DNA of 64,000 bases from NCBI GenBank assembly GCA_030264375.1, contig JASCQW010000043.1, positions 125,606,407-125,670,406 on the forward strand, given 5' to 3'. Every line of letters starts with the position of its first letter. Positions within the stretch are counted from its first letter, which is position 1. Of this stretch, positions 3,123 through 53,399 are shown one piece after another. This DNA comes from Carcharhinus longimanus (taxonomy: Eukaryota). Under the pieces are notes generated by a model. It searched no databases and was not told where the DNA came from. It was given only the letters and a program-made list of their open reading frames with translations. A program made the position numbers and the translations under genes.

Positions 3123-3262
3123 AAACAAGAATAGAAAATGCTGGACAATCTCAGCAAGTCTGACAGAATCTATGGAGAGAACACAGAGCCAACATTGAGA
3201 ATCTGGGGGACTCCTTGGTCAGGGCTTTTGTTTCATATTCCGGTCTCCACGGTATTTTCCTT
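3123..3262. mobile_element. Penelope-type non-autonomous element, internally deleted
   Basis: aaaatgctggacaatctcagcaagtctgacagaatctatggagaga arm matches copies at 22330, 32665 and 52411. Confidence 0.6.
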
Positions 3263-13830: not shown

Positions 13831-14494
13831 ATACCCTGAATCAGCTGATCTTTTTGCCTTGAGTGCCAGTTATCGGTGAATTATATGCAGCTTTGTGTTG
13901 TGGACCTACTCATTCCAGTCAACCATTAGCCATGCATTAGGGCGCACAACAAAATGGAGGCTTAAAACAGCTGGAGGAAATGGCAGCCACTGTGTCACCA
14001 CCACTTGATCAGGTCCTCGGTCTCCAGGAGATACCCAGGAGCCCATGTCAGGCCTCTCTGCCTCGGGATGATCTTACTTTTGCCCATTTGAACCTTGAAC
14101 ACGCGGATTGCTGGTTATTTCTATGACATCCCTCCGTGCGCTCGCCCCGCTGAGGTAATCACCCGCAGTCACTGCGGGAATCCCACACATCAGCACTGAA
14201 ATTCCACTACCTTCAAACAACACCTGCTAAACACTTCACAAACAGCCTTAATTGGGGGATTCTGTCCACGCACACAAACCGGCTCTGTAAAAAGTGGGAG
14301 AAAGCTGGGACACATCTACATTCCTGTCCAGTGTAATTTTTTCCAGATTTTTCCTAACTTGGTAAAACTCCTGCTGATAGCACTTCCCATCTCCCTGGAT
14401 GCCACCAGACCTGCTGAATGTTTCGAGCATTTTCTGCTTTTATTTCCAATATGCAGATTTTACCTGGATTCACGCAAATCATTTTATGAATGTA

Positions 14495-22270: not shown

Positions 22271-22329
22271 GTCTTACCAGCCATCATCAGTAAAATAATA
22301 AAACGAGGAAACCTCTTTAGATTCATAAA

Positions 22330-22515
22330 ATCAAATTACTGCGAATGCTGGAATCTGAAACCAAAAAAGAAAATGCTGGAAAATCTTAGGAGATCTGGCA
22401 GCATCTGCAAGGAGGGAAAAGTGCTGATGTTTCCAGTCCAAATGACCCTTTGTCTTACAGATACTGCCACACCTGCTAAGATTTTCCAGCACTTTCTCTT
22501 TTGGTCTTTAGATTC
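22330..22515. mobile_element. Penelope-type inverted-repeat element with truncated hammerhead motif
   Basis: Arms gctggaaaatcttaggagatctggcagcatctg and cagatactgccacacctgctaagattttccagc; minus strand GACAA-A-GGGTC-ATTTG-GACTG-GAAA. Confidence 0.7.
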
Positions 22516-30590: not shown

Positions 30591-30939
30591 GTGAGCATTT
30601 TTAAGCTGATTTGTAGACACAGGAGTGCCCTATGGGAACAGGCAGTCAAGATTCATTTTCACACCTTAGTAAAGAGACCTTGAAATCTTTGTGACCTCTG
30701 CCTAAAGCAGAAAACATTGACTCCAAGGAGCCGGCGATTGTGCAGAGTTTACAAGGAGCCGATGTTTGAGAAAAGATGAAAAATGATGGGGCAGAGAAAG
30801 AAACAGAAAGTCCAGCAGCATCTGAAAAGAGAAAAGACAGGTTAAGGTTCATCAAAACTGCTTTTCAGAGGGAAATCTTCACCCAGAGGACAATATTTCC
30901 TCTTCTCTTTACAGATGGGGGAGTCCATGATTCATAAAA

Positions 30940-32355
30940 AAGAAAAATACTGCAGAGGCTAGGAATGCAAAATAAGAATAAAAATTGCTGGAAATACTCA
31001 GCAATTCCGTTCAATGACTCCTCATCATTCCAGTTCTGATAGAAGGTCTTGGGAAAATTTGGACAGGTTTGTTAAAGCCAGTTCATGTTCATTTCATTGG
31101 TTCGGGTTTTTTGACCAGGTAGTTGGAGTCCATTCGGCCCACTGAGCCTGTGCTGGCTGTTTGAAGGAGGCTCGGTGAGGATAATGTGATTGATGTGGAG
31201 TACAAGGACTTTGAGAAAGTCTGCCATAACAGGTTTGTCAGCTAAACTCTAATTCCTAGAACAAAAGGGACAGGAACAATATGGATGTGAAACTGGCTAA
31301 GTGACAGGCAACACAGAATAGTGGTGAACTACTGTTTCCCAGACAAGGAACAGTGCATAATGAGGTTCCTGAGGCATCAGTATTAAGACCACGATATTTG
31401 TTGACATATATTAAAGACCAAGACTTGGGTGCCCACAGCACAACTTCAACATTTGAAGTTTGCACAAAACCTGAAGCATTGTGAGCTTTGAGGAAGATAA
31501 TGTGGGACACTCAAAAGGACAGAGAGGCTGGCAGATTCAACGCCATGCAGAGAAGTGTGAAGTGGCTCATTTTGGCAGGAGGAAGAAGTCAAGGCAATTT
31601 TAAACTAAAGAGTACAATTCTCAAGAATGAGCAGGAGCAGAGGGAGCTGGATGTATGTGTACCATTGGAGGCGATAGGACAGTTGGAAGGAGCAGTTAAT
31701 AAGGCAAATGGAAGCCTGATCAATAAAAGTGTGGAATATAAAAATAATGAAGTTAGGATGAACCTTTATAAAACACTAATTCAAGCTCTTGTGTCCAATT
31801 CCAAGTGACTTGAGGAAGAACATAAAGGTTTCAGAGAGAGTGCAGAAGAGGTTTACAAAAATGGTTCCAGGGATGAGGAGCTTCAGTTACGAAGAGAGAT
31901 TGGAGAAGCTCGGGCTACTTTTGGAGATTCAGTGACGATTTGACAAGAGTTTTCCAAATTGAAGGTTCGGGACATAACAGGAAGAGAGAAGCTGTTTCGA
32001 TTGGCAGAAGGATTATGAAGGGGAGGTCACCAGTGTAAAGGTGATTGGCAAATGAAGCAACGACCACATGAGCAAAACATTCTACACATCGAGTATTCAG
32101 GATCTAAATGCACCGCCTGAGGGAGTGGCGGAGGCAGATTCAATTGTAGCTTTTGAGGAAGAATCAGATAATGACTGAAGAAAATAACTTTACAGGGAGA
32201 GAGGGAAAAGGCATCACAGACAGGGCAGGCTGAATGGCCTCTTCTGTTATGTAACAATTTTATGATTCTGGTCACGACTGAAACCTTAACACAATATTTT
32301 CACTCGACAGATGCTGCCAGACCTACTGAGTACGTCAAACATTGTGTTTTTATTG
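30940..32355 (+). mobile_element. Penelope-type element split by a 1.2-kb CR1 (31049-32269)
   Basis: Left part aattgctggaaatactcagc...ttctgatagaaggtc; right part ggtcacgactgaaaccttaac...cagatgctgccagacctactgagt; CR1 RT remnant between (ORF 31488..31808). Confidence 0.75.
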
Positions 32356-32454: not shown

Positions 32455-32965
32455 TGTCAATCATGGCTCAGTTGGTAGATATTAAAGTCTCTCCACCAGA
32501 AACCTGGTTATCCAGTCCAGGCCGATGCACCAGTGGTGGACTGAGGGAGTGCCGGGCTGAGGGAGTGCCGCATTGCCGGAGCGCTGCCTTTTGCCTGAGA
32601 TGCTAATCCAAAGCCCGTGTACAGATAACCTGGTTATTATCAGGTTGCTGCTGTGGGATCAAGATAGAAAATGCTGGAAAATCTCAGCAGGTTTGGAGAC
32701 ACCTGTGGAGAGAGAACAGAGACAACAGAGTTTCAAGTCTGGATGACCCTTCGTCAGAGCTCTGAGATGCTCCAGCATTTTCTGTTTTTGTTTCAGAATC
32801 CAGCATCCGCAGTAATTTGCTTTTAGGCTCTTTTTGTTTGTGGAAACTTGCTAAGTGCAAATTGGCTGCCACATTTCCTCTATCACTGTAGTGACTACAC
32901 TTCAAACTGTATTTTCTGCAGAGTGCTTTGGGCCACTGGGAGGTTGTGAAAGGTGCTACATAACA
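32455..32965 (+). mobile_element. DeuSINE interrupted by a Penelope-type element (about 32660-32825)
   Basis: Head gtcaatcatggctcagttggtag, core ctgagggagtgccgcattgccgga, tail tgcaaattggctgccacatttcc...gtgaaaggtgctacataa. Confidence 0.75.
32722..32762 (-). ncRNA. Hammerhead ribozyme motif (C3-G8 core), partly decayed
   Basis: gagct-CTGACGA-A-GGGTC-atcca-GACTT-GAAAC-tct-GTT; stem II closes with G-U rather than G-C. Confidence 0.55.
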
Positions 32966-33324
32966 CGTCACTCCTTCAAATGCCAGAAACAAAAAGGAGG
33001 AAAAAAAATCTCAAGCATTCTTTTTCATTCCAAGAGTTATTCTTGTAAAAGTGAAGCCTTGTCATTTCTGTGGACATGGCACAGAGACACTGTTGACCTC
33101 CTCTGAGGGCCCAGACTGGGCTCACTGTGTGTTCTGTGTGAAATGGACATCGGCATATATCTCGCCTGCACTTCTCCTGTGGGGTTTGTCCTTCTGTCTG
33201 GGTGGGGAATAGTTGTCTGTGCTCTACTGAGGTCAGGCTGCTTAGCTGACAGGTTCTGTCTTTGTACAAGAAAAGAATCAATACTTTGAGACGATGGCTG
33301 CACCCTCAGTGTAAAACAACAAAC

Positions 33325-33440
33325 CTGTAAAGTCTGACATGTTTTCAGGCAAGCCAAGGCAGCTCTCAACTGATCTGCTCCCGGCAGCTGCTCCTGCTCG
33401 CAGGAGTAGGCAGTGAGTGAGAGAGGAGGACGGAACAAAG
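33325..33440 (-). other. Candidate first exon ending MSDFT+G
   Basis: aaaacATG at 33340, donor CAG|gtttgt, phase 1; upstream GC-richer segment with tcact initiator-like motifs. Confidence 0.3.
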
Positions 33441-34169
33441 TGCTGAGGTACATTTCAGTGTCAGAGCCTAGAGCTATTAGTCACTCAATAAATCACACAA
33501 ACTAAATACAGCGCACATTCCCATCGAACTGGGCTTTTTTTTATTTCAACAAGGGATCGGAGGGACAAAGAGCAAGGAACATGCTGTAATTATAACAAAA
33601 GGATAAACAAGCTGCTGATGATTTCAGAGGAACAGGCACAGCAAGAGCTGGCCACAGTTAGCACAAGGAATGATGCTTTTCACACAACATTCTGTGTTCA
33701 CATTCCAAGAATGATATTAACAAAGGGGGTGGCCATTGAGACAGTCATATTCCATGTCCTTACCCTCACCTGGTAGTGTTAGAATTGGCAGGGATACGGG
33801 GCGATCAACTGCTGTTTGGCTCCAGGTAAGCACCTTTTCCTTTAATTTACCAGTTGCACACATCCACATGCCAGGATTTACAGGTGCACACTGAATACAT
33901 GCAGCAACATATACTTAGAGAGGGAATTATTATTGCTATTTCTTTCATCTTGCTGGCAACTCAATTGGGAGATGATGTGTGGGGGGATAGCAGGTTAATT
34001 GGTGGTGCAGGAAGGGGAGGGGCAATATAAAAAGATGTCAAAACACATCCAAATTAGCTCTGGAGTGAGATGGTCCCAAAAGGAGGAATGATATCAAGTG
34101 GTCAGGGTGATCATAGATCCACACCTTCCTCAGCAGGACCTTCCAAAGCCAACTCCTGCTGCCAACAGA

Positions 34170-34305
34170 TAAAAACAAATTACTGCGGATGCTGGAATCT
34201 GAAACTAAAGCTTTGACAAAGGGTCATCTGGACTCGAAACGTCAGCTCATTTTCTCTCCTTACAGACGCTGCCAGACCTGCTGAGATTTTCCAGTGTTTT
34301 CCCTT
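34170..34305 (+). mobile_element. Penelope-type element carrying a hammerhead motif
   Basis: aaattactgcggatgctggaatctgaaac...cagacgctgccagacctgctgagattttccag; same family as 22330. Confidence 0.75.
34209..34247 (+). ncRNA. Minimal type-I hammerhead ribozyme motif with U3-A8 core
   Basis: AGCT (stem I) - TTGACAA (core) - A - GGGTC/atctg/GACTC (stem II) - GAAA - CG - TC - AGCT (stem I). Palindromic ACGT stem III, GUC triplet, predicted cut after 34243. Confidence 0.7.
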
Positions 34306-34324
34306 CTGCTTCCTGCTGCAATCA

Positions 34325-34520
34325 GACTGCCTTACATTATCTGCCTTACATTAAGCTGATCTTTCTCTACACCCTAGCTATGACTTTAACACTACATTCT
34401 GCACCCTCTCCTTCCTTCTCCCCCGTGTACTCAGTATGTTTTATCTGTATAGCGTGCAAGAAACAATACTTTTCACTGTACATCAATACACATGACAATA
34501 ATCAATCAAATCCAATCATG
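34325..34520 (+). mobile_element. Rex1-like LINE 3' tail
   Basis: ctctacaccctagctatgactttaacactacattctgc...aatacttttcactgtac...tgacaataatcaatcaaatc; second copy at 53985. Confidence 0.5.
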
Positions 34521-34762
34521 ATCTCTACCACTGCAAGTTCAAGGGCAGCAGACACTTGGGAACACCATCGCCTTCAAGTTCCCCTTCAAGTCACACCTGG
34601 ACTTCACTGTCGCTGGGTCAAAATCCTGGCACTCCCTCTCTAACAGCACTGTGGGTGTACCTACATCTCAGAGGCTGCAGCAGAGCAAGAAGGCAACTCA
34701 CCTCCAGCTTCTCAAGGGCAATAAATACTGGCCGAGGCAGCAACGTCCACAATCCATGAAAA
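34521..34762 (+). mobile_element. 3' end of the LINE sharing the Meta-type SINE tail
   Basis: gggcagcagacacttgggaacacca...cttctcaagggcaataaatactggcc. Confidence 0.75.
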
Positions 34763-35264
34763 GATTTCTTTACAATTGGTGGCCATTTGGCCCTTCAAAC
34801 CTGCTCTACCATTCAGGTCAATCTTGGCTAAATTTTCCACTTATCTTCTTTGCGACTTCTTTTCCCAACAAAAATCTAACTATCCTGGAGATGGGGTTGG
34901 TTGGAGATTATCCCAGATTCCTCCTATCCGAGGTGCCAGCTTCACTTGCTTCAGTTCCATTCCGATTATCCGCCAACACCCAGCCCTGTCCGAACTTTAA
35001 TTTTTCCTTCATGAAAACACCTGGGCACGTTAAAAAACATAAACATTTTGCTGCAAGAAATCTGATTTCAATCGCAAATTAGCCTCAAGAATTCCACCCA
35101 AGCAAACTCTAAAACAGGGATCAGATTGCAGCGATTTACCCCAACAGCTGAAGCAAATCAGAAATAAATTGGATAAAATGTTATATAAAGTCTATGATAG
35201 AGTTATATAAAGTAGTGTCTATATTACGTACATTAACATGAAACATTGTACCTGTCCCTAGCAT

Positions 35265-35650
35265 CAGGGTTCAAGTCACGTTCTAGAGATTTGAGCACAA
35301 CATGTAGGCTGACAGCACAGGTGCAGTACTGAGAGAGTGCTGCACTGTTGGAGGTGCAGTCCTTTGAATGGGATGTTAAACAGAGGCTAATATACATTCA
35401 CAGGCAAGATTCCATGGCATTATTTAAATGAGAGAATGGGGGCTCTCCCAGGTGGCCAGGTTCATATTTATCCCTCTACTCAGAGGCAGCTCATCCGGCC
35501 AAATCTCTGTGTTTGAAGAATCTTGTGGTGTGGGAATTGGATGTAATGTTGCATGATAACATTGGCCACATTTTCAAAGTACTAAACTGGCTGTAAAATG
35601 CTTTGTGATGGCCTCAGGCCTTTAAAGGCGCTATATAAATACGTGTTTAA
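35265..35650 (+). mobile_element. DeuSINE (SacSINE1-like), near full length
   Basis: gggttcaagtcacgttctagagatttgagcac...gtgcagtactgagagagtgctgcactgttggaggtgc...aaaggcgctatataaat. Confidence 0.8.
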
Positions 35651-49644: not shown

Positions 49645-49795
49645 AGAGAAAGAAGTCTCACAACACCAGGTTAAAGTCTAACAGGTTTATTTTGTAGCAC
49701 AAGCCACAAGCTTTCGCAGCACTGCCCTTCATCAGGTGAGTGGGAGACGTGTTCACAAACAGCGCAGAGATAGACACAAACTCAATTTACAAGAT
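49645..49795 (-). mobile_element. Second Penelope-type family terminus with hammerhead motif
   Basis: cacaacaccaggttaaagtctaacaggtttatt; minus strand tcac-CTGATGA-agggcagtgctgc-GAAAGCTT-gtgg. Confidence 0.6.
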
Positions 49796-50670: not shown

Positions 50671-50767
50671 ATCCATATTTTGTACAACTGATAGAACCTT
50701 ATTTCACAAAAGGAGGCCATTCACCCATCATAAACCTATGTTGGCTCTTTAAATGAAGTTGCACATT

Positions 50768-50977
50768 GTCCCACAGGGCCCGTACGCACAGAGACACACA
50801 GTCCCGCAGGGCCCGTACGCACAGAGACACACAGTCCCACAGGGCCCGTACGCACAGAGACACACAGTCCCACAGGGCCCGTACGCACAGAGACACAGAT
50901 CCACAGGGCCTGTACGCACAGAGACACAGATCCACAGGGCCTGTACGCACAGAGACACAGTCCCACAGGGCCTGTAC
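50768..50977. repeat. Minisatellite, 33-bp unit with shorter variants, about 6.5 copies
   Basis: gtcccacagggcccgtacgcacagagacacaca repeated. Confidence 0.95.
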
Positions 50978-51574
50978 ATAAAAATACAATCACACAGGGC
51001 TCTTCCACAGCAGGTGAGTGAGAGTTACAGGGTCACATGAAAAGTTCATGCGGGTAATGCAGTGTAACCTCAGCTTCACTGACGTGGGTGCCACAGGTCA
51101 AGGCAACTGGAATAGCTCAGAGCTCTCCCCAGCCTTCCTCGTAATGATGCCCAGCTTATTCTCTTTCAGATACTGACTGCATGATCAGCATTTTACACCC
51201 AATTCTATCCATCACCCATTTGTATCCTTTGCTGCGTCCCTTATTGACTTTGCCCAGATGAATAATGCTTCACAGGATGGTGTTTCTACTTGTTAGCAGC
51301 AGAAGGTCTGGTGAATCAATCAGGGTATTGAAAGTGTAGGCGAGTTGCACCAAAACCAATCACACTCGTGATTTGGGCAATCTTTTACATTGGTTCAAGA
51401 CTCAATTCATCTTCAAACCCCCCCGACAGCCCCAAGTCAGGAGTTCAGAAATCCAATCTTCAAAATGCACACCGTTTCCCCAAAACCACCAGCCTGGTTT
51501 GCAGAATCTGCCTTCAAATCAAAAACTATTTACATTTACTCAGAAACTGATGAACGTCCACCAAACTACTAAAT

Positions 51575-52410: not shown

Positions 52411-52610
52411 CGAATACAAACAGAAAATGCTGGAAAATCTCAGCAGGTCTGACAGCATCTGTGGAGAGAGAGAACGGAACCAACATTTCCAATCTGGATC
52501 ATTTAGACTCAAAACATTGGCTCTATTCTCTCTCCACAGACGCTGCCAGACATGCTGAATTTTTCCATCATTTTCTGCTTTTGTTTCAGATTCCAGCGTC
52601 CGCAGTAATT
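52411..52610. mobile_element. Penelope-type fold-back element with arms of about 75 bp
   Basis: cagaaaatgctggaaaatctcagcaggtctgacagcatctgtggagagag pairs with ctctctccacagacgctgccagacatgctgaatttttccatcattttctg. Confidence 0.8.
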
Positions 52611-53399
52611 CACTTTTTTCCCCTTATTCCAAACAGTCCACTTTGCTGATCAAATATTTTCAGTGATATTAACATCAATTTGCCCTCGTACATACTTCAA
52701 GGAATTATTTTTAATTGAAAGAAATAATTCTGAGGCTGCCCTATCCCTCTGGTTCTTGGAGATTTTACACTGCTATTATGTGACTGCATTTCAGCAGAAA
52801 CTTCGAAGCCCGACCTGCTGCCTGCAATTTCATTTTGGCTTCTTGACTGCGCCCACCACGGAACGCATGAATTTTAACTTTCATCATCTAACAAGATGGG
52901 AACTTCATCGTGAATGAGCCGGGGGGGGGAGTTTAATCTGCCAGTCTACTGTTAAAGGGGCAAACAGCCTGATAAACAGGTGTGCAAGTTTACTTGCTAG
53001 AAATATGTGGATATACAGACCATATCCTCAGTGCAAAGAGTTAGTGCTCCATCAGACTGGGGCTGACTGCAACATGTAATTCTCTCTTATTTGACAAGAT
53101 ATCAACGACCTGAACACTGGTGTATTTTCTTATGCAGCAAATTGGGAAAATCTGGAACGTAAAGAATTATGGACACAGATTCAATTGTAAATTCCAAAAG
53201 GGAATTGGATAAATACTTGATTGAAGAAATTTGCAAGACTGTGGGAACGAGCAAGCTCCAAAAAAAAGGGCCAACACAGACAGAATGGCTTCCTTCTGAA
53301 CGGCAAGATTTGAGGATTCTGTTGCAGTAAGCTGATACGGGAATGGACTCTGCCACTACGGCAGTACAATACGTTCCTTATTATAATTCCAAAACATTC

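Follow-up and report, generated by a model that had tools for sequence, protein, structure and literature searches.

A minimal hammerhead motif with a U3-A8 core in the terminal repeat of a Penelope-like element from Carcharhinus longimanus

The motif at positions 34209–34247 of the 64,000-nt stretch of Carcharhinus longimanus DNA analyzed here (the window) is very probably a minimal type I hammerhead in the terminal repeat of an old Penelope-like element (PLE) encoding a reverse transcriptase (RT) and a GIY-YIG endonuclease, likely of the Neptune type. The source element would have had a U3-A8 core, and the window copy would be a short, likely inert stub. The U3-A8 variant is already known; the shark family extends it to another host group and provides a very large example. 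A less ordinary result than the core variant comes from mapping the copy ends, which puts the ribozyme at the likely RNA start and gives genomic support to the in vitro finding that in PLEs uncut RNA is copied from internal starts.

The hammerhead motif and the window copy

A sequence-only reading of the window had described an apparently intact hammerhead, and all of its parts could be recovered in order. At the level of sequence the motif is indeed intact:

34209–34212, forward strand: 5' strand of stem I, AGCT; 34209 is the putative first base of the element's RNA (+1)
34213–34219, forward strand: core TTGACAA, corresponding to U3-U4-G5-A6-C7-A8-A9
34220, forward strand: extra A between A9 and stem II
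34221–34225 and 34231–34235, forward strand: stem II, GGGTC and GACTC, 5 bp with the 5-base loop ATCTG between them
34236–34238, forward strand: GAA, corresponding to G12-A13-A14
34239–34242, forward strand: palindromic ACGT (ACGU) replacing stem III
34243, forward strand: C17; the cut is predicted after this base from hammerhead numbering
34244–34247, forward strand: 3' strand of stem I, AGCT

The motif has the features typical of PLE minimal hammerheads, namely ordered core boxes with a Watson-Crick 3-8 pair, a short helix I, a helix II starting with G10.1-C11.1, an extra base 9/10.1 and a palindromic 15.1–16.1 segment (ACGT at 34239–34242), which is also found in the family majority. The first pair of stem II has a predicted pair probability of 0.99, and the stem includes one G-U pair. 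A 33-mer spanning the core has 329 exact copies in the 2.68-Gb genome against 0 for the reversed control, and a generic hammerhead descriptor allowing either form of the 3-8 pair and a free stem II gave 4,559 genome matches against 142 in the control. The motif is therefore beyond chance. Its folding energy is ordinary (−9.8 kcal/mol, z −1.38, with 20 of 200 shuffles equally good), and an Rfam scan of 33000–35500 returned no hammerhead family among nine matches up to E 10.

Many of these features are shared with the minimal hammerhead of Cercyon from Schistosoma mansoni: the type I layout, a helix I of 4–5 bp, a palindrome only for helix III, the extra base 9/10.1, G10.1-C11.1, the U3-A8 core and the predominance of solitary motifs that are dispersed and derive from truncated elements (Cervera and De la Pena, 2014; PMC4209133). 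Unlike Cercyon, where stem II has 7–8 bp (PMC4209133), the shark motif has a stem II of 5 bp; its host is a cartilaginous fish, and among the first 100 generic matches U3-A8, with 49, forms the largest class. The core is thus less novel than the sequence-only reading supposed, since the variant was published for Penelope minimal hammerheads in 2014, with ~1,300 matches in Schistosoma (PMC4209133), and natural U3-A8 hammerheads were reported in 2011 (PMC3088659). The accessible text of the 2014 paper names U3-A8 for Schistosoma only. The extra A after A9 is present as had been claimed with a viroid as the parallel, and an extra base at this place is a general trait of PLE minimal hammerheads (PMC4209133). 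The natural examples of Perreault et al. (2011; PMC3088659) likewise have a 3-8 core pair that covaries in nature and, in the accessible part of that paper, are not tied to PLEs or to motifs lacking stem III. A literature search with most subscription papers outside its scope, covering for chondrichthyans the first 30 of 287 entries listed, found no paper on PLE hammerheads from sharks.

The window copy itself is a 144-bp stub, consisting of an inverted tail and bases +1 to +102 and framed by a 16-bp target duplication:

34154–34169, forward strand: left target-site duplication, ~16 bp and decayed; best flank match, with a score of 10 that 0 of 242 swapped-flank controls reach
34168–34209, reverse strand: inverted element piece (PLE tail), +137 to +96, 95% identical to the family majority
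34209–34311, forward strand: forward stub, +1 to +102, 93% identical to the family majority; both ends are the commonest family ends
34311–34326, forward strand: right copy of the target-site duplication

Of 49 copies whose flanks could be read, 13 have target duplications with a score of at least 8, compared to 1 of 242 swapped controls; an earlier automatic search, run without a control, had given six with a score of at least 9 among 53 eligible copies. The stub lacks both a TATA box and a nearby partner, the nearest piece of the same family being ~11.7 kb away, and it is therefore likely inert. Its intact state is common to hundreds of copies. An insertion shared with another organism (organism C) was not counted, since the contig over 33900–34196 (five differing letters) reaches just 28 bases into the insertion, below the threshold of 31 letters.

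More stubs of this family or its sisters are found in the window at 3123–3258, 14398–14441, 22325–22515, 30938–31003, 32297–32330 and 52418–52620, several of them as fold-back pairs, and the stub at 32660–32825 has a C3-G8 core. A different, very abundant repeat with a summed contig depth in the millions starts directly after the target duplication (~34320–34510). The window also contains a tandem array at 50729–51017 with about eight copies of a 31–33-base unit.

The Penelope-like host element

Long copies run upstream from the motif into a coding region. The family layout can be described as hammerhead, 5' leader, open reading frame (RT, zinc-finger linker, GIY-YIG), 3' region, TATA box, hammerhead and tail. 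Protein evidence comes from locus L120, where a 462-aa open stretch with RT motifs, a CX4CxxC linker and GIY-YIG ends ~370 bases before a U3-A8 motif. Pfam matches for this stretch (GIY-YIG, E 0.001; RVT_1, E 0.0095) and for L121, which also has a CX4CxxC linker (RVT_1, E 0.00015), are below the curated cut-offs. Two more fragments gave GIY-YIG alone (E 0.04–0.19), four others had no Pfam match, and a PDB sequence search returned one unrelated match (E 0.62). The best named homologs of the reading frame are from rays and sharks, and many carry RT (PF00078) and GIY-YIG (PF01541). This agrees with the shark-type host that had been proposed from the sequence. The proposed Penelope-type identity also holds, as the motif sits in a PLE terminal repeat. 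Three ray or skate proteins (P0001, P0014 and P0077), named as kinases or as a chitinase-domain protein, also match the reading frame, which suggests that these gene models have absorbed PLE sequence.

The family has a single reading frame with RT and, at its C terminus, GIY-YIG, on domain matches below the cut-offs, as well as partial tandems, an adjacent inverted copy and a 30–40-base tail, all as expected for endonuclease-bearing (EN+) PLEs. The linker in both L120 and L121 fits the CX2-5CxxC zinc finger between RT and endonuclease in Neptune and Nematis, and an element of the Neptune type is therefore likely, with the clade called from motifs and not from an RT tree. It resembles the Neptune/Nematis elements described by Craig et al. 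(2021; PMC8557442) in the order of RT, linker and C-terminal GIY-YIG and in the 5' truncation, partial tandems, adjacent inverted copy and tail, and differs in that all shark copies examined are decayed. Long copies are ~70–87% alike in pairwise comparison and the ones examined are broken. Two loci with listed open frames of more than 1,200 aa turned out to be N-rich stretches with no long reading frame.

Thirty loci were picked by the front part of the reading frame and seven of them reach the leader. Three of these have upstream repeat as partial tandems (L320, L331 and L340), three begin at the first base of the hammerhead, either continuously (L322) or across N stretches (L317 and L321), and one ends at N. 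In L322 the sequence runs from +1 into the reading frame, which starts at ~+172. As long copies carry the hammerhead both before the leader and reading frame and after the 3' region, each end of the element, which is of an autonomous type, bears the motif. From the number of matches to an anchor sequence (see below) and a divergence of 6–10% per site, the genome may roughly contain ~40,000 pieces of the family.

Splice-acceptor-like stretches follow the ribozyme at +40 to +56 (~34248–34265 in the window), at ~+106 and at +140 to +169 (L322 and L340), the last with a branch-point-like word and directly before the ATG of the reading frame. No splice donor was identified. An upstream ATG at +57 opens a frame of 22 codons.

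Predicted cleavage, copy ends and template

A sample independent of the ribozyme was taken with a 35-base anchor downstream of the hammerhead; this anchor has 2,563 exact matches, of which the first 90 listed, all on one contig (C1), were used. Among these copies 53 reach back over the motif, and only one has kept core, palindrome and both stems. CpG sites were altered in 83 of 268 cases. Inserted copies would thus decay mostly at CpGs, hitting G12 and the palindrome. The family majority keeps the core bases other than 3 and 8, G10.1-C11.1, the palindrome, both stems and the GUC triplet. The non-CpG G/C core sites G5 and C17 changed less than other G/C sites (3/123 vs. 132/1,385, p 0.005), which plain neutral decay does not predict and which rests on these two positions, while A/T core sites change like other A/T sites (25/535 vs. 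102/1,692, p 0.28).

In an element still active, cleavage by the ribozyme would be slow and would take place in a dimer formed via ACGU, probably aided by the element protein. The predicted monomer fold pairs G5-A6-C7 of the core with G16.2-U16.1-C17 (probability 0.95), and a classical dimer is predicted at −14.9 kcal/mol against −19.6 for two monomers, that is 4.7 worse; a sister subfamily described below shows the same behavior. A minimal hammerhead of Schistosoma cut weakly as a dimer and not as a monomer (PMC4209133), and eight of nine Xenopus dimer elements did not cleave according to a preprint (bioRxiv 10.64898/2026.07.22.740005).

It is possible, if doubtful, that the ribozyme was already dead in the source element, so that U3-A8 represents two drifted changes that pair by chance and the family spread without cleavage. 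The inactive resting fold predicted above fits with this, as does the derivation of the copies from uncut RNA (see below), and there are precedents in the Anolis hammerhead mutants, which left in vitro insertion unaffected (PMC11167929), and in Naiad elements, which spread without canonical hammerheads (PMC8557442). Yet core, stems, palindrome and GUC are all kept in the majority while the repeat can no longer be aligned with that of the sister subfamily above about −50, and U3-A8 pairs are reported to be active in vitro (PMC3088659, citing its ref. 32). Both points speak against a dead ribozyme, and we prefer the slow one.

The 5' ends of the copies could be mapped for 75 of the 90 anchor copies after removal of 15 that end at N stretches. 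Fifteen ends are at +1 and 24 at +1 to +3 (five of them at +3), while 19 copies extend above −5, and a single end falls within +34 to +38, around the predicted cut (binomial p ~1e-18 over the 64 ends between −40 and +44). Inverted parts are present in 21 of the 90 copies; six of the 21 stop at +1 or +2 and one at +36, and L323 also has an inverted part that ends at +36. The rare +36 ends are ambiguous, because the sequence has AGCT at +36 as well as at +1. By eye, 2 of the 15 copies starting at +1 showed an additional G before it, as from copying of a cap, and this line of evidence was dropped.

Upstream of the motif, 22 of the 26 U3-A8 motifs having TATAAA within 40 bases have TATAAAT at −30. 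In the sister subfamily TATAAAT is also the commonest word at −30 (9/25 exact), with a different spacer. For RNA polymerase II, 30 bases is the usual distance from a TATA box to a downstream pyrimidine-purine step. Because of this TATA box, the ends at +1 to +3 and the single end near the cut, the ribozyme likely opens the element RNA and the copies were likely made from uncut RNA. The literature search, with the scope given above, found no paper on a TATA box before a PLE hammerhead.

At the other end, 41 of 76 copies (14 at N stretches were left out) terminate at +96 to +106 and 27 at +133 to +137, giving two groups 35 bases apart. Taken together, RNA polymerase II would start at the A of stem I, 30 bases downstream of the TATA box, and the element protein would initiate reverse transcription within the RNA, near +100 or +137. 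A start at the 5'-proximal site would give stubs of 100–137 bases as in the window, a start at the same site in the downstream repeat would give long copies, and the templates would mostly be uncut RNA. The predicted cut site is covered by family contigs from four runs presumed to be RNA; such contigs cannot show ends.

The Poseidon element PAc of Anolis carolinensis behaves in a very similar way, with two internal reverse-transcription starts whose 3' ends define a 30–40-base tail, uncut RNA as the main template, hammerhead mutants that still inserted and cleavage that needed protein (Frangieh et al., 2024; PMC11167929). No RNA ends were found at the cut site in PAc either. Unlike the shark element, with its zinc-finger linker and a reading frame from ~+172, PAc has a C3-G8 core and a reading frame from stem II, and the evidence for PAc is biochemical whereas the shark family is known from genomic end mapping alone (PMC11167929). 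The Penelope element of Drosophila virilis also has its transcription start inside the terminal repeat of the upstream partner, but with an internal TATA-less promoter and an intron located 46 bases downstream of the start (Schostak et al., 2008; PMC2377424). In the shark element the TATA box is upstream, and the RNA would begin with the 39 bases of the hammerhead.

We consider it improbable that the pile-up at +1 arose from something other than a transcription start, either template switching at the AGCT palindrome or a splice acceptor before the motif. AGCT at +1 and +36 does give microhomology in L171 and L198, but many copies at +1 have no inverted part. Similarly, the bases before +3 are acceptor-like (a pyrimidine run plus TAG), yet the end peak is at +1 (15) and not at +3 (5), and no upstream exon is common to the copies. 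The equal TATA spacing in two subfamilies with different spacer sequence also speaks for a transcription start.

One proposal, which we put forward tentatively and consider rather unlikely, builds on a start at +1. A TATA-driven RNA would then carry the hammerhead as its first 39 bases, and cleavage would take off a capped end of 35 bases rather than produce templates of unit length. The ribozyme would serve its own element as a brake or as a switch between translation and copying; the layout, which may also occur in a second repeat family, would perhaps be general in vertebrate PLEs, and U3-A8 with GUC and C3-G8 with GUU would be two tunings of a slow cut.

The sequence-only reading had proposed a short non-autonomous family. 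Instead, the motif is the truncated end of an element encoding RT and endonuclease, and it is very unlikely that the short copies are a self-propagating retrozyme- or SINE-like family with its own source. Most copies are short and many share both ends, and retrozymes derived from PLE repeats have been described (bioRxiv 10.64898/2026.07.22.740005), but short and long copies have the same sequence, and the full-length L322, which continues into the reading frame, is preceded by the same inverted piece and has the same 5' junction as the window stub. Inverted parts and target duplications vary from copy to copy, and the stubs lack the TATA box and would therefore have no promoter of their own. 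Non-LTR retrozymes are head-to-tail hammerhead units with no reading frame; here the window copy is single and the family is tied to a reading frame. Head-to-tail arrays were not seen among the sampled copies inspected, and L054 has one short internal duplication. The preferred reading is thus one of stubs copied from the RNA of the long element.

The 3-8 pair in the family and its sisters

U3-A8 is the state propagated by the family, as the sequence-only reading had supposed. The 53 anchor-picked copies reaching back over the motif comprise 49 U3-A8, two U3-G8, one C3-A8, one gapped and no C3-G8 copy, and among copies with long upstream repeat context (first 100 of 490, tallied by hand) 94 are U3-A8 and none is C3-G8. 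A chance origin of the window copy, by two mutations within a C3-G8 family, has a negligible probability. In its favor, positions 7-8 form a CpG (C7-G8) in the sister subfamily, where single C3-A8 changes are frequent (28/70). The 329 exact copies and the occurrence of U3-A8 in just 1 of 70 sister copies speak against it, and the two U3-A8 tallies just given (49/53 and 94 of the first 100) refute it. The sequence-only reading had named this case as one that would count against it, and the family copies do not bear it out.

The sister subfamily has C3 in 66 of 70 copies, with positions 7-8 as CG in 16, TG in 22, CA in 25 and other letters in 7 (hand tally). The symmetric spread of TG and CA in these sequences is the pattern that CpG decay leaves at C7-G8. 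A third group, with A7, is likewise C3-G8, and since both groups have this state we infer that C3-G8 is likely ancestral. U3-A8 would then likely have a single origin in C3-G8, with G8 lost to CpG decay and C3 later changed to U in compensation, which suggests that the pair was kept by selection. Among 28 distinct genomic copies the 3-8 pair is UA in 14, CG in 8, UG in 1 and other in 5. The whole-structure covariation score over these copies does not stand out from shuffles, 64 of 500 of which matched or beat it, and the 3-8 change counts as one inherited event. Stem I occurs in the two forms AGCT/AGCT and AGTT/AACT.

In contigs from four additional runs, of which three carry the labels of other organisms, positions 34213 and 34218 had no variant of at least 5%, while variation at three of the four CpG positions was 12–28%; these contigs were aligned at 88% likeness, which biases them toward the letters of the window.

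The first 100 of the 4,559 generic matches comprise 49 U3-A8, 35 C3-G8, 12 C3-A8 and 4 U3-G8 (hand tally). A search based on CUGANGA would miss the motif, as had been predicted, and with it about half of the ACGU-type minimal hammerheads among these first 100 matches in the shark genome. In the same matches U3-A8 goes with GUC in 46 of 49 cases and C3-G8 with GUU in 33 of 35 (hand tally). GUU is a poor cleavage triplet, and the linkage of the triplet to the 3-8 state may represent balanced tunings or simply linked positions. This natural pair of sister ribozymes makes the function of PLE hammerheads testable.

Other arrangements of hammerheads were also seen. Locus L031 contains a near-perfect head-to-head ribozyme pair at ~1300–1530, separated by a short palindrome that differs in sequence. 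Another, unrelated repeat family with a hammerhead is found on the minus strand of the window at 49708–49735 and in L013, L190, L241, L264 and L282. It has an AGCT/AGCU palindrome and is mostly C3-G8, and some of its copies have a TATA-like word 33–38 bases before C3, which would again place the ribozyme near the RNA start.
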